Position numbers and translations under genes: made by a program | Notes under the pieces: model-generated | Databases searched by the model: none | Told to the model about the DNA's origin: nothing | What the model saw: the letters and a program-made list of their open reading frames with translations, nothing else | NCBI GenBank assembly: GCA_036502625.1 | Contig: DASXYG010000032.1 | Coordinates: 1,755-65,754 of the forward strand | DNA: 64,000 nucleotides | Origin: Streptosporangiaceae bacterium | Lineage (GTDB): Bacteria; Actinomycetota; Actinomycetes; Streptosporangiales; Streptosporangiaceae | Direction: 5' to 3' | In this document: in pieces, positions 4,249 to 19,045 of the stretch | How positions within the stretch are numbered: the first letter of the stretch is position 1 | How the letters are laid out: each line of letters begins with the position of its first letter

Positions 4249-5904
4249 ATGCGCATCGACGCGATCTTCACCAACGCCCGCTTCACCACGCTGGACGCCG
4301 CGCGGCCCGCCGCGGCGCGGCTCGGCGTGCTGAACGGGCGGATCGCCGGGTTCGACGAGGAGCTCGACGGCGTCACCGCCGACCACGTGTACGACCTCGG
4401 CGGCGCCCCGGTCGTCCCGGGGTTCAACGACGCGCACCACCACATGTCCATGCGCGGACAGCGGCTCGCCGAGGTCGACCTGGGGGAGCGGGCGGTCCGT
4501 ACGCTCGACGAGCTGTACGCCGCGGTCGCCGAGCGCGCGGCCACGCTGCCGGAGGGCGCGTGGGTGCGCGGCGCCGGTTACGACCAGAACAAGCTCGGCG
4601 GCGGCCACCCGACGCGGGAGGCGCTGGACCGCGCCGCCGGGGGCCGTCCCGTCTGGCTGGCGCACACGTCCGCGCACATGGGCGTGGTGAACACCGCGGC
4701 GTTCCGCGCGATGGGCTTCGCCGACCCGGCGTCCGTGCCGGACGTCGACGGCGGCACGGTCGGCCGCGGCGCCGACGGCCTCCCGGACGGGCTGCTCGCG
4801 GAACAGGCGCAGGGCCTCGTGTTCGACGTGCTGCGCCCGGCCGCGTACGAGGACTACGTCGCGGGCATCGGCCGGGCCAGCGCGGTGGCCGCGTCCGAGG
4901 GCCTGACCAGCTTCACCGAGCCCGGCGTCGGGCTGGGCCGGGTCGCCGGCAACGGCGCCGCCGACGTGGCCGCGTTCCAGGACGCCGTGGCCCGCGGGCT
5001 GCTGCGCCAGCGCGCCACGCTCATGCCGGTCTCCGGCGCGCTGCACGCGGGCGGAAAGTACGCGCCGGGCGCGGACTGGTTCGGCCTCGACCTGGGCGTG
5101 CGTACGGGCATCGGCGACGAATGGCTGCGCCTCGGCCCGGTGAAGGTGTTCTCCGACGGCTCGCTGATCGGCCGTACGGCGGCCATGTGCTGCGACTACG
5201 TCGGCGAGGCGGGCAACACCGGCTTCTTCCAGGAGCCCGAGCCCGAACTGCGCGAGCTCATCGTCCGCGCCCACCTGCACGGCTGGCAGGTGGCCACGCA
5301 CGCGATCGGCGACCGCGCCGTCGGGTTCGTCCTCGACGCGTACGCCGAGGCGCAGCGGCGGCTTCCGCGTACGGACGTCCGGCACCGCATCGAGCACTGC
5401 GGCGTGGCAAGCGGCGAGCAGGTCGCGCGGATCGCCGGGCTGGGCGTCGTCCCGGTGCCGCAGGGCCGGTTCGTCGGGGAGATCGGCGACGGCATGCTGG
5501 CCGCGCTCGGCGCCGAGCGGGCGCGCGGGGCGTACCGGCAGCGGTCGTTCCTCGACGCCGGGATCACCGTGCCCGGAAGTTCCGACTGCCCGGTCGTGGA
5601 CGGCGCGCCGCTGCTCGGCATCCACGACATGGTCAACCAGCGCACCGACAGCGGCGCGCCCTTCAACCCGGCGGAGGCGGTGACCGCGGAGCAGGCGCTG
5701 CGCGCGTTCACGCACGGCTCCGCCTATGCGGCTCACGAGGAGGCCCGCAAGGGCACCCTGAGCCGCGGCAAGCTCGCGGACTTCGTCGTGCTCTCCGACG
5801 ACCTGCAGGCCGTACGTGCTGAGTCAATTCGCGAGATCCAGGTCGGCGCCACCGTCGTCGCCGGCTCGCTCGTGTACGACGCGGCGAACCTCGCCGCGGT
5901 GTGA
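4249..5904 (+). CDS. Amidohydrolase-3 (YtcJ-like) metal-dependent hydrolase
   Basis: MRIDAIFTNARFTTLD...VVPGFNDAHHHMSMRG, ATHAIGDRAV, HRIEHCG and GSSDCPVVDGAPLLG match the amidohydrolase_3 pattern. In frame with track ORF 2632-5904. Confidence 0.85.
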   Translation: MRIDAIFTNARFTTLDAARPAAARLGVLNGRIAGFDEELDGVTADHVYDLGGAPVVPGFNDAHHHMSMRGQRLAEVDLGERAVRTLDELYAAVAERAATLPEGAWVRGAGYDQNKLGGGHPTREALDRAAGGRPVWLAHTSAHMGVVNTAAFRAMGFADPASVPDVDGGTVGRGADGLPDGLLAEQAQGLVFDVLRPAAYEDYVAGIGRASAVAASEGLTSFTEPGVGLGRVAGNGAADVAAFQDAVARGLLRQRATLMPVSGALHAGGKYAPGADWFGLDLGVRTGIGDEWLRLGPVKVFSDGSLIGRTAAMCCDYVGEAGNTGFFQEPEPELRELIVRAHLHGWQVATHAIGDRAVGFVLDAYAEAQRRLPRTDVRHRIEHCGVASGEQVARIAGLGVVPVPQGRFVGEIGDGMLAALGAERARGAYRQRSFLDAGITVPGSSDCPVVDGAPLLGIHDMVNQRTDSGAPFNPAEAVTAEQALRAFTHGSAYAAHEEARKGTLSRGKLADFVVLSDDLQAVRAESIREIQVGATVVAGSLVYDAANLAAV

Positions 5905-7250
5905 AAGGTCCCCTGAGAATGACCGAATCGATGAACCCGCCGGTCCCCCTGAAGGAGGCGCGCCGGATCGTCGGCGCCTCCTACATCGGCACGGCGCTGG
6001 AGTGGTACGACTACTTCCTCTACGGAACGGCCGCCGCCCTCGTCTTCGACAAGCTGTTCTTCCCCAGCCTCAGCCCCACCGCGGGCACGCTGGCCTCGTT
6101 CGCCACCTTCGCGGTCGGCTTCATCGCCCGGCCCATCGGCGCGGTCATCTTCGGCCACTTCGGCGACCGCATCGGCCGCAAGAAGACGCTGATCGCCACC
6201 GTGCTCATGATGGGCCTGGCCACCGGCCTGATCGGCCTGCTGCCCAGCTTCTCCGCCATCGGCGTCGGCGCCCCGATCCTGCTGGTCGTGCTGCGGTTCC
6301 TGCAGGGCATCTCGGTGGGCGGCGAGTGGGGCGGCGCGATGCTGCTCACGCTGGAGTCCACGCCCAAGGAGAAGCGCGGCTTCTACGCGTCCATCCCGCA
6401 GCTCGGCTCCCCGACCGGGACGCTGCTGTCCAGCGGTGTGTTCGCGCTGGTCAGCCTGTTGCCGGATCCGGCGTTCATGGCGTGGGGCTGGCGGGTGCCG
6501 TTCCTGGCCGCGTTCGTGCTGCTGGCCGTGGCGCTGTACCTGCGGCTGCGGGTCGAGGAGTCGCCGGCCTTCCAGCGGCTGGCCTCCGCGCAGGACGCGA
6601 AGGAGAGGCGCGAGTCGGTGCCGGTGCTGGCCGCCCTGCGGCACACCTGGGGCCGGATGATCGTCGGCGTGTGCGCGGCGTTCCTCGGCGTCGGCGGGTT
6701 CTTCCTGCTCACCACCTTCATCATCAGCTACGGCACGAAGACCCTCGGCCTGCCGAAGAGCACCATGCTGAACGCCACGCTGGTGGCCGCGGTCGTGGAG
6801 ATCGTCGTGCTGTTCACCGCGGGCAAGGCGGCCGACCGGTTCGGCGCCTGGCGGGTCTGCGCGTTCGGCGCCGCGGCCACGGTCGTGCTGGCGTTCCCGG
6901 TGTTCCTGCTGGTCGACACCAAGCAGACCGCGCTGGTCTTCCTGGGCATCGCGCTGGGCACCGGCGCCATGTCGATCCCGTACGCGCCCATCGGCGCGCT
7001 GGTCACCCAGATGTTCCCGGTGCAGTACCGGTACAGCGCCGTGGCCCTGTCGTACAACATCGCCGGCGTGTTCAGCGGCTTCGTGCCGCTGGCCGCCGAG
7101 TCGCTGACCGGCGCGGCCGGCGGCGCCTCCTGGGGCGCGGCGCTGCTCCTGGTGATCATCGCGGCCGTCACCCTGGCCGGGTCGCTGGCCTCCCACGCCG
7201 CCCGCGTCCGGCGCGCGGTGCCGGCCGACGTCGCGCAGGCCGTGGCATGA
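5901..7250 (+). CDS. MFS transporter, metabolite:H+ symporter (MHS) family
   Basis: GTALEWYDYFLYGTAAALVFDKLFFP and GHFGDRIGRKKTL are MHS signatures, with about 12 predicted TM segments. GTG at 5901 overlaps the upstream stop. ATG at 5919 is an alternative start. Confidence 0.85.
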   Translation: MKGPLRMTESMNPPVPLKEARRIVGASYIGTALEWYDYFLYGTAAALVFDKLFFPSLSPTAGTLASFATFAVGFIARPIGAVIFGHFGDRIGRKKTLIATVLMMGLATGLIGLLPSFSAIGVGAPILLVVLRFLQGISVGGEWGGAMLLTLESTPKEKRGFYASIPQLGSPTGTLLSSGVFALVSLLPDPAFMAWGWRVPFLAAFVLLAVALYLRLRVEESPAFQRLASAQDAKERRESVPVLAALRHTWGRMIVGVCAAFLGVGGFFLLTTFIISYGTKTLGLPKSTMLNATLVAAVVEIVVLFTAGKAADRFGAWRVCAFGAAATVVLAFPVFLLVDTKQTALVFLGIALGTGAMSIPYAPIGALVTQMFPVQYRYSAVALSYNIAGVFSGFVPLAAESLTGAAGGASWGAALLLVIIAAVTLAGSLASHAARVRRAVPADVAQAVA

Positions 7251-7436: not shown

Positions 7437-9164
7437 ATGAGACACGCTTCGGTCCGCACAGGCGGGCGGATCCTGATCGACCAGCTCACCCGGCATGCCG
7501 TGCGCCAGGTGTTCTGCGTGCCGGGGGAGAGCTACCTCGGGGCGCTCGACGCGCTGTACGACTCGGCCATCGAGACGGTGGTGTGCCGCCAGGAGGGCGG
7601 GGCCGCGTACATGGCCGAGGCGTACGGCAAGCTGACCGGCCGTCCGGGGGTGTGCTTCACCACCCGGGCGCCCGGCGCCGCGAACGCGCTGGTCGGGTTG
7701 CAGACCGCGGCCGAGGACGCCACGCCGGTGGTGCTGTTCGTGGGGCTGGTGCCGCGCGGCCACCGGGACCGCGCGGCGTTCCAGGAGTTCGACCTGCGCG
7801 GGGTGTTCGGCACGGTCGCGAAGCTCGTCGAGACGATCGACGACGCCGCGCGCGTGCCGGAGTACGTCGCGCGTGCGTTCGCCGCCGCGTGCTCGGGACG
7901 GCCCGGTCCGGTCGTGCTGGGGCTGCCGGAGGACATGCTGGCCGACGTGGCCGTGACGGCCGACGTGGACCCGCTGCCGGTCGCCGAGGGCGCGGTGTCC
8001 GCCGAGGAGCGCGACCGGCTGGCCCGGCTGCTGTCCGCGGCGCGCCGCCCGCTCGTGGTGGCCGCGGGCTCGCGGTGGACGCCCGCGGCGCGCGACGACC
8101 TCAGGGAGTGGGCGCAGCGGTGGTCGCTGCCGGTCGCCGTCGACTTCCGCTGCCAGGACCTCGTCGACAACGACGCGCCCGTGTACGTCGGCCCCCTCGG
8201 CTACGGCCGCGACGACCGGCTCGCCGCCAGGCTCGCGGGGGCCGACCTGGTCATCGCGGTCGGCGCGGCACTCGGCGACGTCGCCACGGACGGCTACACG
8301 CTGCTCGGCGGAGGGGCCGCGGGTGACGACGCGCTGCCCGGCGATCAGGCCGCGGGTGGCGACAGGCCGCCCGGCGACGGGGCGCCGCGGGTCGTGCAGG
8401 TGCTTCCGTACGCCGATGTGGCCGGGCAGGCGTACGCGCCGCTGATGTCGGTGCTCGCCTCGCCGTCCGCGTTCGGCGCGGCAGTGCGCGACCTGGCGCC
8501 GGACGCCCCGGTGCCGTGGCACGCCGACACCGAGAAGGCGCGCGCCGAGCACCTGGCGTACGCCGAACCGGTCCTCGACGGCGACGAGCTCGACCTCGGC
8601 GCCGTGTTCACCACGCTGCGCGACCGCCTCGACCGCGACCGCGACGAGCACGACCCGATCATCACGTTCGGCGCCGGGAACCACGCGATCTGGGCGCAGC
8701 GGTTCCTGCGCTACCGCAGGTTCCCCGCGCAACTTGGGCCGCGCAACGGGTCGATGGGCTACGGCGTGCCCGCCGCGGTCGCCGCCGCGCTGACCTTCGG
8801 CAACCGCCGCGTGGTCTCGGTCGCCGGCGACGGCTGCTTCCTGATGAACGGCCAGGAGCTCGCCACCGCCATGGCGTACGGCGCGGCACCGCTGATCCTG
8901 GTGGTCAGCAACGGCCAGTACGGCACGATCCGCCAGCACCAGGAACGCGAACACCCGGGCCGCGTCTCGGGCACGGCCCTGCTCAACCCGGACTTCGCCG
9001 CGTACGCCCGCGCGTTCGGCGCGTACGGCGAGGTCGTCGCCCGTACGGAGGAGTTCCCCGGCGCCCTGGACCGCGCCCTGTCCTCCGGTACGGCAGCGGT
9101 CATCGACCTCCGAGTCTCCCCCGACCGCCTAGGCCCCGGCCTCACGGTCACGGACCTGCACTAA
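7437..9164 (+). CDS. Thiamine-diphosphate-binding enzyme (acetolactate synthase-like family)
   Basis: 575 aa. N-terminal ThDP pyrimidine-domain motifs FCVPGESYLGALDAL and RQEGGAAYMAEAYGKLTGRPGVCFTTRAPGAANA. C-terminal GSMGYGVPAAVAA...VAGDGCFLMNGQELAT is the ThDP-binding motif. Confidence 0.85.
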   Translation: MRHASVRTGGRILIDQLTRHAVRQVFCVPGESYLGALDALYDSAIETVVCRQEGGAAYMAEAYGKLTGRPGVCFTTRAPGAANALVGLQTAAEDATPVVLFVGLVPRGHRDRAAFQEFDLRGVFGTVAKLVETIDDAARVPEYVARAFAAACSGRPGPVVLGLPEDMLADVAVTADVDPLPVAEGAVSAEERDRLARLLSAARRPLVVAAGSRWTPAARDDLREWAQRWSLPVAVDFRCQDLVDNDAPVYVGPLGYGRDDRLAARLAGADLVIAVGAALGDVATDGYTLLGGGAAGDDALPGDQAAGGDRPPGDGAPRVVQVLPYADVAGQAYAPLMSVLASPSAFGAAVRDLAPDAPVPWHADTEKARAEHLAYAEPVLDGDELDLGAVFTTLRDRLDRDRDEHDPIITFGAGNHAIWAQRFLRYRRFPAQLGPRNGSMGYGVPAAVAAALTFGNRRVVSVAGDGCFLMNGQELATAMAYGAAPLILVVSNGQYGTIRQHQEREHPGRVSGTALLNPDFAAYARAFGAYGEVVARTEEFPGALDRALSSGTAAVIDLRVSPDRLGPGLTVTDLH

Positions 9165-9179
9165 CACCGCCCCGCGCCT

Positions 9180-9520
9180 CCTGCGTCACGTGTCTCCCCC
9201 GAGGGCCTCGCAGCCCCTCACTCCGTGCCTCGCGCCCGCGTCCCCTGCGTCACGTGCCTCCCCCGCGGGCCTCGCAGCCCGTCGCGTCTTGCGCCTCGCG
9301 CCCCTCGTTCCGCGCCTCGCGCCCGCGCCTCGCGCCTCCTGCGTCACGTGTCTCCCCCGAGGGCCTCGCAGCCCGTCATTTCTCGCCCTGCGCCCCGCCT
9401 CGCGCCTCGCGTCCCGCGTCCCGCGCCTCGCGCCTCGCGCCTCGCGCCCCTCGTTCCGCGCCCGGCGCCCGCGCCCCGCGCCTCCTGCGTCACGTATCTC
9501 CCCCGAGGGCCTCGCAGCCC
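9180..9520. repeat. Four direct copies of a 37-bp element, CCTGCGTCACGTGTCTCCCCCGAGGGCCTCGCAGCCC
   Basis: Copies lie at 9180-9216, 9244-9280, 9338-9374 and 9484-9520 with 1-3 substitutions. Spacing is irregular (64, 94 and 146 bp). The last two copies extend to about 80-bp duplicates (9331-9410 and 9477-9556). Confidence 0.85.
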
Positions 9521-9542
9521 GTCATTTCTCGCCCTGCGCCCC

Positions 9543-9661
9543 GCCTCGCGCCTCGCGCCTCGCGCCTCGCGCCTCGCGCCTCGCGCCTCGCGCCTCGCGC
9601 CCCGCGCCCCGCGCCCCGCGCCCCGCGCCCCGCGCCCCGCGCCCCGCGCCCCGCGCCCCGC
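9543..9661. repeat. Two abutting heptanucleotide microsatellites, (GCCTCGC)x8 then (GCCCCGC)x9
   Basis: Perfect tandem units counted directly: 9543-9598 and 9599-9661. The two units differ by a single base. Confidence 0.95.
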
Positions 9662-9706
9662 GCGAGTCTCCCGGGGCGTGCGCGTGGCGCGTGGCGTGCG
9701 TGCAGG

Positions 9707-10020
9707 GTCCGGCGTTCGGGCGTGTAAAGGCCGCGCTTCGCGCGCGCTTTTCTTGCGTCCCGACGTGAGCGTTCTCGGGGCTGGGGCGCGAGGGCTGCCG
9801 CGCCCTGGTTTGCGGATGCTCTCGATGGCGTGGCATGGCGTGGCGTCCCTGGGCGCGCGTCTTGTGCGGTGCGCGAGGCTTGCGGGCGCGCTTGTGGCGC
9901 ATGCGGCGCGGGCGGGGTGCGGCGTTCGTACGCGCAAAGGCCGCGCTGCGCGCGCGCTTTTCCCGCGTCCTGATGTGAGCGTTCTCTGGGTGGGGCCGCG
10001 GGGGCTGGCGCCCTTTGGCT
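9707..10020 (+). repeat. Two forward copies of a ~100-bp element carrying an A-tract/GC-hairpin/T-tract core
   Basis: 9707-9810 and 9917-10020 align at roughly 80% identity by eye. The cores are AAAGGCCGCGCTTCGCGCGCGCTTTTC (9726-9752) and AAAGGCCGCGCTGCGCGCGCGCTTTTC (9936-9962). Confidence 0.8.
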
Positions 10021-10127
10021 CGCGCTCTTCCTCGTGTCCTGACGCCGAGGTTCTTGGGGGTTGGGGCGTGGCGCTGACGTCCTTTGGCGCTGGTGGTTAC
10101 GGGGGGTGGGGCGGGGTGGCCACTCGG

Positions 10128-10445
10128 CGCCGTGAGGGCGGTGGTCTGAGGGCGGAGCCCCCGCGGCCCAACCCTGAGGACGCCTCGCCAAGGTCGCGGG
10201 CAAAAGCGCGCGCGAAGCGCGGCCTCTTCGTGCGAGGCCGTGTGCCCCTGCCCTGGCACGCCTGGGGGAACGCGCGGGGCGGGGGAGGGCGGCGCCGTGA
10301 GGGCGGTGCTCTGAGGGCGGAGCCTCCGCGGCCCAACCCCGAGAACGCCTCGCCAAGGTCGCGGGCAAGAGCGCGCGCGCAGCGCGGCCTTTTCTCGCGC
10401 GGCTATGTACCCCTCCGGGAGAGCGCGCGAAGCGCGGCCTTTCGT
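10128..10445 (-). repeat. Two to three copies of the same element family in inverted orientation
   Basis: 10128-10250 and 10295-10415 align with each other and with the reverse complement of the forward copies. The cores are AAAAGCGCGCGCGAAGCGCGGCCTCTT (10202-10227), AAGAGCGCGCGCGCAGCGCGGCCTTTTC (10367-10394) and a partial GAGCGCGCGAAGCGCGGCCTTTC (10421-10443). Confidence 0.8.
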
Positions 10446-10559
10446 GCGCGAGGCCGCGAGCGCGGCCCGGCGGCGCGGCCCGGCGGGGCGGGGCGCGGGC
10501 GCGGGGCGAGCGCGGCCCGGCGGCGGGGCGGCCGGGGCGGGGTGCGGGGGCGGGGCGAG

Positions 10560-11969
10560 TTACTCGGGGGCGTCGTCTGTGCGGGCGGCGGCTAGGACGC
10601 GGGCGGCGTCGTTGTCTGAGGCTGTGCGGGCGGCCAGGGTGATGGCGCCGCCTATCACCATCGGCACCACCAGGACGTACATTGCGGCGGTCAACGAGCC
10701 TGTGGCCTGGGAGCTGAGGCCGACGATCAAGGGGCCGCCCGCGGTGCCTGCCGTGAGGACCAACTGGAGGACGCCGAAACCCACGCCGCGGGAACCGGCG
10801 CCGATGACGTCGGCGACCGTGGCCGTCAGCGTGGGGATGGCGATGGCCATGATCACGACCGAGGCGAACAGCAGCACGGTGAACAGCGTGAACGTGGTCA
10901 TCATCATCGACAGGCCGAGGACCGCGGAGCCGATCAGCATGCCGCCGCCACCGGCCAGCACCCGGCCGCCGCGCCGTACGCCGTGCCAGCGGCGGCCGAG
11001 GCGCATGCCGATCATCGTGCCGAGCAGCACACCGACCAGGGAGATGCCGCCGGTGGTCAGCGCCGCCGCGCCGACGCCCACGCCGTACGTGCGGTACACC
11101 AGGCTGGGCAGCCAGTAGAAGATCCCGGCGAGGCCCAGCGTCAGGATCCCCACGCCGATCCCGACGAGCACCGCCGTGCGGATCGCCATGATCTCCTTGA
11201 GCTGCGCGCCGATCCCGGGGCCGGCCGGGCGGCCGGGTGTGCGCGCGGCCGGTGCGGCGTCCGGTACGGGCACGGTGTCGGTGCCGCCCGCGGCCGCGAC
11301 CCGGTCGACGAAACCGCGCGGCGGCTCCCGCAGGCGGAGGCAGAACCACGCGACGATCAGCCCGGGGACGGCCATCACGAAGAACGCCGTACGCCATCCG
11401 GCGGCCTGGCCGACCACGCCGCCGAGGATCGTGCCGACGGCGGTGCCCGCGTAGACGGTGAGCCGCGTCCAGCCGAACGCGCGGTCGCGGGACCGCGGCG
11501 GGTAGTAGTCGCCGAGCAGGCTGCCGACCACCGGGTTGTCGATGTTCTCGGCGGCGCCCAGCACGATCCGGGTGACGTAGAACATCGCGAACGACACGGC
11601 CGCGCCGGACGCCACGGTGATCACCGACCACACCACCACGACCAGCCCGACCAGCCCGATCATCCGGGTCCTGCGGTAGCGGTCGGCGATGTAGCCGGCC
11701 GGGACGGCGACGATCATGCCGGCGATCGCGGCGGCCGTGGGGATCGACCCGGCCCAGGCGTCGCCGATGTGCCACTGGTGCTGGATCAGCGGCAGCACGC
11801 CGGAGACGATGTTGTACTCGATCCGGTCGACCAGGCCGACGCAGAACACCACGATCAGCGGCGCCCAGCCGAACGGCGCGTGGAGCAGTGCGCTGACCCC
11901 GTCGGGCGGCGGTGCGCCCATACGCGTGAACCACGGACCCTGTACGCGCTGGATGCGAGTCATATTCAC
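10560..11969 (-). CDS. MFS transporter
   Basis: 469 aa and multi-TM. GYIADRYRRTRMI matches the MFS loop 2-3 motif. The track ORF 9490-12009 only extends a different frame through the repeats. Confidence 0.85.
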   Translation of the reverse strand: MNMTRIQRVQGPWFTRMGAPPPDGVSALLHAPFGWAPLIVVFCVGLVDRIEYNIVSGVLPLIQHQWHIGDAWAGSIPTAAAIAGMIVAVPAGYIADRYRRTRMIGLVGLVVVVWSVITVASGAAVSFAMFYVTRIVLGAAENIDNPVVGSLLGDYYPPRSRDRAFGWTRLTVYAGTAVGTILGGVVGQAAGWRTAFFVMAVPGLIVAWFCLRLREPPRGFVDRVAAAGGTDTVPVPDAAPAARTPGRPAGPGIGAQLKEIMAIRTAVLVGIGVGILTLGLAGIFYWLPSLVYRTYGVGVGAAALTTGGISLVGVLLGTMIGMRLGRRWHGVRRGGRVLAGGGGMLIGSAVLGLSMMMTTFTLFTVLLFASVVIMAIAIPTLTATVADVIGAGSRGVGFGVLQLVLTAGTAGGPLIVGLSSQATGSLTAAMYVLVVPMVIGGAITLAARTASDNDAARVLAAARTDDAPE

Positions 11970-13484: not shown

Positions 13485-14807
13485 ATGCAGTACGAGAGAG
13501 GGACCCGCATGAGCCCAAGCGCAGCCCCCGCTGCGACCGCTGTCGGCGCTCCGGTGCGCGAGCTGCGCCGGATCGCCACGGCATCGTTCATCGGCACCGC
13601 ACTGGAGTGGTACGACTTCTTCCTGTACGGCACCGCCACCGCCCTGGTGTTCAACAAGCTGTTCTTCCCGAACGTGGACCCGGCCGTCGGCCTGATCGCG
13701 TCGTTCTCCACCTTCGCCATCGGCTTCGTCGCGCGGCCCGTCGGCGCGCTGATCTTCGGCCACTTCGGCGACCGCATCGGCCGCAAGCGCACCCTCATCG
13801 CCACGGTCACGCTGATGGGCGCGGCCACCGGCCTCGTCGGCGTCATCCCGTCGTACGCCTCCATCGGCCTGGCCGCGCCGGTCATCCTGGCCGTGCTGCG
13901 GTTCCTCCAGGGCGTCTCGGTGGGCGGCGAGTGGAGCGGCGCCATGCTGCTCACGCTGGAGAACGCGCCCGCCGAACGGCACGGCAGGTACGCCGCGATC
14001 CCGCAGCTCGGCTCCCCGGCCGGCACGCTGCTGTCCAGCGGCGCGATGACCGCCGTCGCGTTCCTGCCCGACGCGCAGTTCTACTCCTGGGGCTGGCGCC
14101 TGCCGTTCCTCGCCGCGTTCGTGCTGCTCGGCGTCGGGCTGTACCTCCGGCTGCGGGTCGAGGAGTCGCCGGTGTTCCAGCGGCTCGTCAAGGAGGACCG
14201 CACCGTACGGGTGCCGCTCATCGAGGCGTTCCGGCGCACCGGCGGGCGCATGCTGGTCAGCGCGTGCGTCGCGTTCACCGGCATCGGCGCGTTCTTCCTG
14301 CTCACCACGTTCATGATCAGCTACGTCGTGGACACGCTGCACATGTCGCGGCCGGTCATCCTGAACGCCACGCTGCTCGCCGCCGTGCTCGAGGCCGTGG
14401 TCATCGTCGTGACCGGGCGCTTCGTGGAGCGGTTCGGCGCGGCGCGCGTCTGCGCCGTCGGCGGCCTCCTCGGCATCGTGCTGGCGTACCCGGTGTGGGC
14501 GCTGGTGGACACCCGGTCCCCGGTGCTGGTCACGATCGCCGTGGCCGGCACGATCGCGCTGCTGTCCATCCCGTACGCCCCGGTCGGCGCCGTGATCACC
14601 AACCTGTTCCCCGAGGAGATCAGGTACAGCGCGGTGTCCATCTCCTACAACATCGCCGGGCTCGCGGGCGGTTTCGTGCCGCTGCTCGCGCAGAGCCTGC
14701 TCGGCGGGTTCGGCGCGTCGTGGCCGCTGGCGATCCTGCTCGGCCTCATCGCGGCGATCACCGCGGCCGGCTCGTTCGCGGCGATGCGGATGCGGCTGCC
14801 CGCCTGA
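13485..14807 (+). CDS. MFS transporter, MHS family (paralog of 5901-7250)
   Basis: GTALEWYDFFLYGTATALVFNKLFFP and GHFGDRIGRKRTL. ATG at 13509, preceded by GAGAGAGGGA, is the more likely start. Confidence 0.85.
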   Translation: MQYERGTRMSPSAAPAATAVGAPVRELRRIATASFIGTALEWYDFFLYGTATALVFNKLFFPNVDPAVGLIASFSTFAIGFVARPVGALIFGHFGDRIGRKRTLIATVTLMGAATGLVGVIPSYASIGLAAPVILAVLRFLQGVSVGGEWSGAMLLTLENAPAERHGRYAAIPQLGSPAGTLLSSGAMTAVAFLPDAQFYSWGWRLPFLAAFVLLGVGLYLRLRVEESPVFQRLVKEDRTVRVPLIEAFRRTGGRMLVSACVAFTGIGAFFLLTTFMISYVVDTLHMSRPVILNATLLAAVLEAVVIVVTGRFVERFGAARVCAVGGLLGIVLAYPVWALVDTRSPVLVTIAVAGTIALLSIPYAPVGAVITNLFPEEIRYSAVSISYNIAGLAGGFVPLLAQSLLGGFGASWPLAILLGLIAAITAAGSFAAMRMRLPA

Positions 14808-18352: not shown

Positions 18353-18387
18353 GGACCTACTGTCAGTAGGTTACTGGAAGTAGGTCC
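18353..18387. promoter_or_regulatory. Candidate TetR operator: nested inverted repeats built on the half-site AGTAGGT
   Basis: ACCTACTG-T-CAGTAGGT is a perfect 8+1+8 palindrome at 18355-18371. GGACCTACT (18353-18361) is also the reverse complement of AGTAGGTCC (18379-18387). The site lies in the 88-bp BVMO/TetR divergent intergenic region. Confidence 0.5.
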
Positions 18388-18415
18388 GTCTGGGTAGCGG
18401 CGATACGCTGACCTC

Positions 18416-19045
18416 GTGACGGACACCACGGCGCGCGGCGGTGCGGGGCCCACCCGCGGCACCCGGCGCATGCCGCGCGCCGAACGCGAACGCCAGATGC
18501 TCGCCGTCGCCGAGGAGGTCTTCGCCGAGCGCGGCTACGCCGGCGCCGCCATGGACGAGATCGCCGAGCGCGTCGGCGTCTCCAAGCCGATGCTGTACGA
18601 GTACTTCGGCTCCAAGGACGGCCTGCTCAGCGCCTGCGTCTCCCGGGTGCGCACCGAGCTGCTTGACGCCACGCGCCGTGCGGTCGCCGGCGCGCCCACG
18701 CCCGAGGAGGCGATGCGCCGCGGCCACCTGGCGTTCTTCCGGTTCGTCGACGACCACGCGGCGGCCTGGGCGGTGCTGCTGCACGAGTCGCGGGTCACGG
18801 ACGGCCCCGCCGCGGCGGCCATCGACGCCATCCGCGAGCAGCAGACGGGCTTCATCGTCGAGCTGCTGACCGCGCAGAAGCCGGACGTGCCACGCCGCGA
18901 GCTGGAGGCGTACGCCCAGCTCCTCGTGGGCGCGTCCGAGCGCCTGGCCGTCTGGCGCACCGAGCACCGCGTCAGCGCGAAACGCGCCACGGAGTACCTC
19001 ATGAACGTCATGTGGACCGGCCTGGGCCGGCTGGCGGCGATCTAG
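18416..19045 (+). CDS. TetR/AcrR-family transcriptional regulator
   Basis: RERQMLAVAEEVFAERGYAGAAMDEIAERVGVSKPMLYEYFGSKDGL is a canonical TetR HTH. Confidence 0.9.
   Translation: MTDTTARGGAGPTRGTRRMPRAERERQMLAVAEEVFAERGYAGAAMDEIAERVGVSKPMLYEYFGSKDGLLSACVSRVRTELLDATRRAVAGAPTPEEAMRRGHLAFFRFVDDHAAAWAVLLHESRVTDGPAAAAIDAIREQQTGFIVELLTAQKPDVPRRELEAYAQLLVGASERLAVWRTEHRVSAKRATEYLMNVMWTGLGRLAAI

Follow-up and report, generated by a model that had tools for sequence, protein, structure and literature searches.

Repetitive extragenic palindromic (REP) sequences and bacterial interspersed mosaic elements (BIMEs), known in enterobacteria for instance as Y and Z REPs and as the tandemly amplified BIME-2, are high-copy, extragenic and lineage-specific palindromic units, for which roles in transcription termination, protection of mRNA 3' ends and gyrase binding have been proposed. 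In mycobacteria, Supply et al. are said to have described in 1997 the mycobacterial interspersed repetitive units (MIRUs) as tandem arrays of 46-101 bp units at a few dozen intergenic loci. Reportedly, MIRUs are oriented with the adjacent gene and abut its stop codon, their copy number shifts by slippage or unequal recombination, and they lie inside operons, where their short open reading frames (ORFs) run into the stop codon of one neighbour and the start codon of the other. While proteobacterial repeats of the REP/BIME type have been studied in depth, there is hardly any description of them from high-GC actinomycetes, and two surveys (PMC3733652, PMC12306157) list no Streptomyces-like family. 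Here we analyze a zone of 1.4 kb within a 64,000-nt stretch (the window) at bases 1755-65754 of contig DASXYG010000032.1 from the genome of a Streptosporangiaceae bacterium (GCA_036502625.1). The zone, window positions 9165-10559, separates the converging genes of a thiamine pyrophosphate (TPP) enzyme and a major facilitator superfamily (MFS) transporter and carries copies of two repeats, designated elements A and B.

We confirm that this zone is non-coding, saturated with repeats and roughly mirror-symmetric. A preliminary description of the stretch had read it as a purpose-built, double-sided termination module or, alternatively, as a nest of non-autonomous repeats that had expanded in a safe site between convergent genes. 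Only the latter agrees with the dispersed intergenic families and the expansion in place described below. The zone is not unique to its locus, and a purpose-built control module is not supported as a design of this locus: the same architecture recurs about 100 times in the genome whatever the orientation of the neighbouring genes. We consider it likely that the zone belongs to a set of about 100 nests, formed by two lineage-specific, non-coding, dispersed repeat families that resemble REP/BIME in their behaviour.

The dispersal became apparent with the genome-wide BLASTN comparison that the preliminary description had proposed, in which one unit matched 64 times and the other 63 times, with the matches spread over many contigs. 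The genome comprises 7.68 Mb in 140 contigs and is 87.75% complete with 2.9% contamination. Iterated nhmmer searches found 353 copies of B (~85 nt) and 68 copies of A (~62 nt) in 102 nests on 51 contigs; 91 nests contain B, and most nests are without A. With genes called crudely from codon-position GC (GC3-based), 11 of the 421 copies fall inside a gene call, so that both families are almost wholly intergenic. B copies occupy convergent, tandem and divergent spacers in numbers of 122, 142 and 20, against 1106, 3003 and 1104 such spacers in the genome as a whole, and the edges of nests face the 3' end of a gene 83 times and a 5' end 26 times. The nest in the window has the pattern AAAABBbb (lower case for inverted copies) and with 1225 bp from first to last match it is the sixth largest; the largest nests reach up to 1658 bp and up to 11 copies. 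Clustering of the B copies yielded one main family and a variant of 10 copies. The spread over the genome is uneven: contig C91 holds 43 B copies in 45 kb with nearly every spacer filled, nests also occur on C84, C52, C72, C18, C107 and others, and 89 contigs with 4.1 Mb or 54% of the bases are free of copies.

Each B unit combines a conserved head hairpin with a second, interrupted inverted repeat. The head module of 21-26 nt is its only simple hairpin, and the ~85-nt unit as a whole is not a short palindrome. Element A contains only small nested palindromes. Singleton B copies have sharp ends, (C/G)AAAGGCCGCGC ... GCCGCCCT. The terminal inverted match is weak, with 7 of 9 positions agreeing between AAAGGCCGC and the complement of the B 3' end, and no target-site duplications were seen at singletons and minimal doublets. 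The 5' boundary (C/G)AAAGGCCGCGC shows no GTAG or CGTC tag.

The mirror symmetry of the zone is a property of the family, because nests with copies in both orientations share one polarity whatever the orientation of the flanking genes. In such mixed nests (n=33) the first copy is '+' in 33/33 and the last is '-' in 30/33, and this head-out polarity (-> ... <-) holds in ++, +-, -+ and -- gene contexts. Alternating BbBb nests and block-wise BBBbbb nests both occur; 58 of the 91 B nests have a single orientation. The identities between copies indicate how the nests may have grown. Same-orientation B copies within a nest are 87% identical, while copies in different nests share 72% and copies in the opposite arms of one nest likewise 72%. 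Adjacent copies reach 86-89% in the same orientation and 67-69% in opposite orientations, and in alternating nests the identity between copy i and copy i+2 is 88-92%. Of 317 B copies, 200 have their closest relative within their own nest, where chance would give 3.7. This pattern shows that arrays grow where they are, by duplicating in tandem either single units or whole tail-to-tail doublets. The arms of one nest are therefore old and independent, and the mirror image is not an inverted duplication, a source of symmetry that we rejected because opposite arms resemble each other no more than copies of separate nests do. Since internal tandem duplication keeps the first and the last unit, all mixed nests can go back to a -> <- doublet, and the reverse order could give rise to none of them. 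Subfamilies of B fixed to the left or the right arm were rejected as well, as the consensus sequences of the '+' and '-' arms show no difference. Slippage produces simple heptamer arrays next to the units. Where A and B occur together, A lies outside B, in the orders AAAABBbb, bbaaaa, bbbaa, Bbba and BBba.

At the window locus, the nest could have started with one tail-to-tail B doublet and with a C-rich tract at either end, fixed to the TAA-C stop of the convergent gene on that side. Each arm would then have been duplicated independently, which would give the mirror image with no need for an inverted duplication. Dispersal to new loci would require an enzyme acting in trans; we favour a single-strand mechanism of the HUH type (IS200/IS605 or RAYT-like) over a DDE transposase, because target-site duplications are absent and A carries an NTAAC tag (see below). 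The nest may be tolerated because it is located where two transcripts end. It probably also helps to end them, by loading of Rho on C-rich, G-depleted RNA followed by pausing or 3'-end protection at the B hairpins, an effect that we would regard as a by-product and not as the reason for the structure.

The two families share several features with REP/BIME, which have been tied to Y1 transposases (Ton-Hoang 2012, PMC3333891). B is high-copy, extragenic and palindrome-bearing, it is enriched after gene ends and between convergent genes, and some of its clusters alternate in orientation (BbBbBb), with a distinct variant for each of the two directions and with tandem duplication of the doublet. 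However, B measures ~85 nt and has two separate inverted repeats, whereas a REP has 20-40 nt, and long same-orientation arrays (BBBB) are common here. REP sequences carry GTAG or CGTC at one end (Di Nocera 2013, PMC3733652); B lacks this tag, A carries NTAAC instead, and no gene for a REP-associated tyrosine transposase (RAYT) was found. A second, C-rich and non-palindromic family, A, as well as heptamer arrays are attached to the clusters. We therefore file A and B as dispersed intergenic repeats and not as REP, because of the unit size, the missing GTAG/CGTC tag and, with the reservation that the assembly is incomplete, the lack of a detected RAYT. The likeness to REPINs, the REP doublets that occur with RAYT transposases in Pseudomonas (Bertels and Rainey 2011, PMC3116915), concerns the inverted doublet that apparently seeds the nests (-> <- is seen, <- -> never), copy numbers in the hundreds and an inheritance that looks vertical within one lineage. 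In contrast to REPINs, singlet arrays dominate and no RAYT, whose gene the repeats typically flank, was detected, and the arms of a doublet are just 67-69% identical and thus would not fold into a long REPIN-type hairpin.

Element A shares with the MIRUs an actinomycete host, tandem intergenic arrays, the sense orientation and the position adjoining a stop codon, but it follows terminal genes, has no coding signal and is paired with the hairpin element B. The absence of target-site duplications and of long terminal inverted repeats, the subterminal hairpins and the short conserved NTAAC immediately 5' of A are reminiscent of elements derived from IS200/IS605 such as the palindrome-associated transposable elements (PATEs), which have tetranucleotide target or cleavage sites. 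Here, by contrast, the assembled genome contains no Y1 TnpA and two TnpB-only elements with unrelated ends, and NTAAC can also be explained by an avoidance of G that reaches into the stop codon. [quoted passage not shown] Rho utilization (rut) sites and bidirectional terminators are resembled by the C>G-skewed, G-depleted RNA straight after the stop codon and by local B hairpins, in which the order of A-tract, GC stem and T-tract looks much alike from either strand; in contrast to such sites, the family does not conserve the T-tract, its hairpins are about as stable as DNA of 75% GC leads one to expect, and the units are dispersed repeats that did not evolve at the locus and whose function is predicted. 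Overall, the genome offers a clean case of the head-out polarity of mixed nests, of local duplication from tail-to-tail seeds and of a link between TAA stops, C-rich 3' tracts and repeats.

The last of these links is seen best with element A. There are 13 A arrays no more than 50 nt away from a gene; 11 of them are in sense orientation and directly adjoin its stop codon, and 8 of these 11 stops are TAA, compared with a genome-wide TAA use of 5.6%. NTAAC stands directly 5' of 21 of the 68 A copies, where an estimated ~0.5 would be expected from the genomic density of TAAC. The association extends beyond A: a strongly C-rich tract, defined as C minus G > 0.25 over 120 nt of the sense strand, follows 36 of 297 TAA genes (12%), 29 of them with TAA-C, in comparison with 27 of 3796 TGA genes and 13 of 1207 TAG genes (~1%). 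Most of these post-TAA tracts are unique sequences and not A copies; they start with TAACCCC, often contain C-rich microsatellites, and several are followed by a B in sense orientation. Both genes that flank the zone end in TAA followed by C, and the C-rich tract begins right there. Two explanations can be offered. TAAC may be an insertion or cleavage tag of A, for which stop codons would be the main harmless site in a genome of 73% GC. Alternatively, a Rho-loading region that avoids G may reach into the stop codon, TAA being the sole stop without G. C-rich microsatellites also occur past other gene ends, namely (CCCAGC)n, (CACCAG)n, (CCCCGTCCCTGG)n and (CCGCCCC)n at C80:139312+, C117:94640+, C91:4814-, C20:23705- and C106:91100, and resemble the heptamers of the window.

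All pieces of the zone that the preliminary description had listed were located by Tandem Repeats Finder (TRF), self-BLAST and nhmmer and are compiled in Table 1. One of them had to be redrawn: the four copies of a 37-bp element are present, but the 37 bp are only the core of element A, a C-rich unit of ~62 nt with the core CTGCGYCACGTRYCTCCCCCGNGGGCCTCGCAG. The array of A begins 6 nt past the TPP stop codon in sense orientation. TRF reports periods of 64, 94 and 146 nt for it, and copies 3 and 4 lie within the 146-nt period (2.4 copies, 92% matches). A period of 7 spans 9227-9663, which includes a shorter heptamer array at ~9396-9447 besides the two arrays of the left arm that had been described. 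The two forward and two to three inverted copies of a hairpin-bearing element correspond to B. The head hairpin of copy 1 is AAAGGCCGCGCTTCGCGCGCGCTTTT, with a terminator-like site at 9732-9746, and another such site lies at 10372-10386 (plus strand) in copy 4. Copies 1 and 2 are 84% identical over the 85-nt core (79-80% with flanks), copies 3 and 4 are 92% identical over the core, and opposite arms share ~80% over 76-81 nt; the region of the forward copies is G-rich on the plus strand. The right arm is without a recognisable A unit in the nhmmer search. Its C-rich tract begins directly where the MFS gene stops, and part of it can pair with the spacers that separate the A copies (I9, 27 nt at 89% against 9459-9485). 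The suggested self-alignment returned a long imperfect inverted match of 9563-9801 with 10557-10317 (70% over 248 nt, E 3e-14). Extrusion of the zone as a cruciform, which had been proposed on account of this symmetry, is nevertheless unlikely, because the best inverted arms are short (28-50 nt), imperfect (76-89% complementary) and 150-600 nt apart.

Table 1. Features of the zone and its flanking genes (window coordinates)
Feature	Position	Strand	Evidence
TPP enzyme gene, left flank, 575 aa	7437-9164	+	Pfam TPP_enzyme_N/M/C
Element A, four copies	9170-9229, 9236-9291, 9328-9387, 9474-9533	+ (sense)	nhmmer E 3e-12 to 6e-11, whole genome
Heptanucleotide arrays (GCCTCGC)n, then (GCCCCGC)n	~9543-9664	+	sequence; repeat families D1, D6
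Element B copy 1, forward	9724-9802	+	nhmmer E 9e-11, model 3-80
Element B copy 2, forward	9934-10015	+	nhmmer E 2e-14; direct repeat D4; self-BLAST
Tentative third forward B, weak, 5'-truncated, no head hairpin	10029-10084	+	nhmmer --max E 0.13, model 29-83; by-eye likeness to copy 2
Element B copy 3, inverted	10147-10229	-	nhmmer E 2e-13; direct repeat D5 (125 nt, 90%)
Element B copy 4, inverted	10312-10394	-	nhmmer E 1e-14
Element B fragment, head hairpin only	10422-10443	-	nhmmer --max E 2e-4, model 4-25; inverted repeat I12, 96% complementary to 9726-9748
C-rich right-arm tract, 49-nt unit x 2.1 copies	10456-10559	-	TRF; composition
MFS transporter gene, right flank, 469 aa	10560-11969	-	Pfam MFS_1, 1e-41

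A Rho utilization site calls for RNA that is C-rich, G-poor and weakly structured over ~80 nt or more ahead of the release point, and for the presence of Rho. The same zone could be viewed as a double-sided terminator or insulator under selection, in which the C-rich tracts act as Rho sites, the B hairpins act as bidirectional terminators or exonuclease blocks, and the repeats have been kept, and perhaps spread, for termination. We regard this as possible but clearly less probable than a nest of repeats. The composition of both arms is that of Rut sites on the sense strand of the respective gene, with C 54% and G 28% over 535 nt on the left (GC skew -0.28 to -0.35 across 9100-9700) and, for the 104 nt at right, 64% C and 32% G on the minus strand. 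Contrary to the preliminary description, read-through RNA of the right gene is strongly C-rich only in its first ~100 nt. Rho is encoded in the genome. Downstream of genes, 100-nt tracts of the sense strand are C-rich in 80 cases and G-rich in 15, compared with 14 and 38 upstream. The preference of C-rich tracts for TAA genes reported above fits selection for termination, and the zone holds 3 terminator-like sites versus 0.6 +/- 0.8 in shuffled sequences. Published work ties both C>G-biased Rut sites and C-rich stretches downstream of Streptomyces genes to Rho (PMC13650167; PMC2422843). The depletion of the repeats in divergent spacers would suit a terminator too, although avoidance of promoters is equally expected from purifying selection against selfish insertions. 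Against a selected terminator stands the orientation of B, which tracks the polarity of the nest and not the direction of the genes: mixed nests also occur in ++ and -- contexts, and pure nests that point the 'wrong way' are as frequent as those pointing the right way. Moreover, 1.4 kb with 4 A and 4-6 B copies far exceeds what termination needs.

The hairpins themselves speak in the same direction. The head hairpin of B has 5 perfect GC pairs (up to 11 with a bulge) and an AAA flank, followed in the window copies by TTTT, so the A-tract/hairpin/T-tract units of the preliminary description do exist at this locus. Their stability is ordinary: with dG of -11 to -16 kcal/mol, hairpins as well as whole elements equal dinucleotide-shuffled controls (z -1.25 to +1.2). 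Across the family, the A-tract is kept in 266 copies, while TTTT follows the stem in just 86 of 309 B copies (~28%). In 328 distinct full-length copies the stems are near-invariant and compensatory changes at paired positions almost absent, and the wobble evidence conflicts between strands; together with the non-significant folding scores this led us to reject B as a structured RNA. A terminator role as a side effect of the nest, with Rho loading on C-rich RNA ahead of the hairpins, seems plausible because sense-strand C-rich tracts are enriched downstream of genes and Rho is encoded. If nests do end transcription, selfish repeats could supply Rho-dependent gene ends in GC-rich bacteria. One could go further and see in the C-rich tract starting at a TAA-C stop plus a B hairpin a portable and expandable Rho-dependent terminator cassette, which would spread ready-made gene ends under a head-out polarity rule by means of an enzyme other than the known RAYT or DDE types; we consider this idea doubtful.

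A single insertion of a composite foldback-type element, A> B> <b <a, moving as one inverted-repeat unit would account for the recurring head-out order with A outside and B inside, and for the long imperfect inverted alignment across the zone. It is an improbable origin, though: the opposite arms of a nest (72%, or 67-69% for adjacent copies) are no closer to each other than copies from different nests, most B nests have a single orientation, most nests lack A altogether, no terminal duplications are seen, and the right arm in the window has no A unit. Still less credible is an artefact of assembly or binning, be it that repeats were collapsed or joined into chimeras, or that they come from another organism binned together with this one. 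An identical 9.7-kb stretch is present on an 80.7-kb contig of the JGI metagenome 3300036773, and the genome must therefore be a metagenome-assembled genome (MAG), with the fragmentation, incompleteness and contamination given above; of its 280 contig ends, 13 fall within A/B nests, which makes the repeats one cause of assembly breaks, and more than half of the bases are on copy-free contigs. Yet the copies are diverged (median pairwise identity 72%), have sharp boundaries and lie between intact genes at ~100 loci. Contigs with and without copies also have nearly the same GC content (73.1% and 72.8%) and a very similar tetranucleotide composition, and we therefore read the uneven spread as regional clustering and not as a mixed bin. 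The metagenome contig matches base for base over the 9.7 kb, although it is probably not an independent assembly.

Several points weigh against the zone being a nest of mobile repeats. As most C-rich tracts after TAA stops are unique and not A copies, selection acting on 3' regions, and not the spread of repeats, may have shaped some of the architecture. Copy numbers and absences are approximate in a MAG of this completeness, broken into 140 contigs and without rpoB (PF00562 was not detected, though RecA and Rho are present), and the gene context depends on crude GC3-based gene calls. A mobilising enzyme was not found either. A six-frame search of the genome for Y1_Tnp (PF01797) gave no candidate, with controls matched in 6 of 14 genomes, and the assembled genome yielded no DDE_Tnp_1, DDE_Tnp_4 or DDE_3; these absences are weak evidence because the MAG also lacks rpoB. 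Genes bracketed by inverted copies include none like a nuclease or transposase and are ordinary (glyoxalase-like, MarR, cupin, TetR). Transposition itself is predicted from one genome. Two TnpB (OrfB_IS605) genes are present, at C121:35130-36300 and C29:~18370-18675; the element on C121 is compact, of lower GC and located between two ABC-permease genes, with no adjacent TnpA. As mobilisers of the repeats these TnpB elements were rejected, since their ends are unrelated to A or B.

Both families appear to be lineage-specific from the searches made. The B consensus had no match in 30 relatives and none in 200 genomes across 90 genera of the same family. The 19-mer AAGGCCGCGCTGCGCGCGA produced single chance matches in 98+ species-representative genomes, none of which is a full B according to nhmmer. 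With a gapped pattern of 25 bases, which detects 114 copies in the genome studied here, JGI metagenomes gave one chance coding match, and plasmid and phage collections contained no family member. The genome is the only member of its genus in GTDB; its RecA is 88% identical to that of an uncultured Actinomycetota MAG and 85-86% identical to those of Streptomyces, Kitasatospora and Actinomadura.

Homologues of the TPP enzyme align up to residue 574 of 575, and its stop is the TAA at 9162-9164 (cacTAACacc, plus strand); the MFS gene stops with the TAA at 10560-10562 (gagTAACtc, minus strand). GC at the first, second and third codon positions (GC1/2/3) is 0.78/0.52/0.95 in the TPP gene and 0.68/0.54/0.94 in the MFS gene, in contrast to flat values of 0.81/0.76/0.80 in ORFs of the zone. 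None of these ORFs has a Pfam match, and the Rfam 15 covariance models gave no match at E<=1 on either strand of 8500-11200; we thus rejected both a protein-coding reading and a known RNA family, in keeping with the earlier statement that no credible ORF lies between the two stops. Comparison with related spacers, another proposal of the preliminary description, showed that at the nearest TPP homologue loci the next gene follows after ~10-50 nt, compared with the 1.4-kb gap here; the best TPP orthologues are just 62-66% identical and their neighbours differ. Two paralogous genes for MFS transporters of the metabolite:H+ symporter (MHS) type, 5901-7250 and 13485-14807, bracket the region, but nothing indicates that a duplication ended at the repeat zone. 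In the public JGI metagenome record, a gene of 456 residues is annotated across the zone (5789-7159 there, corresponding to window 9225-10595, plus strand). Its product is an R/A/G/P-rich translation with no Pfam match and no codon-position GC signal, and we regard this gene call as spurious. Together with the contig ends inside nests, it indicates that such nests yield false proteins and break assemblies.

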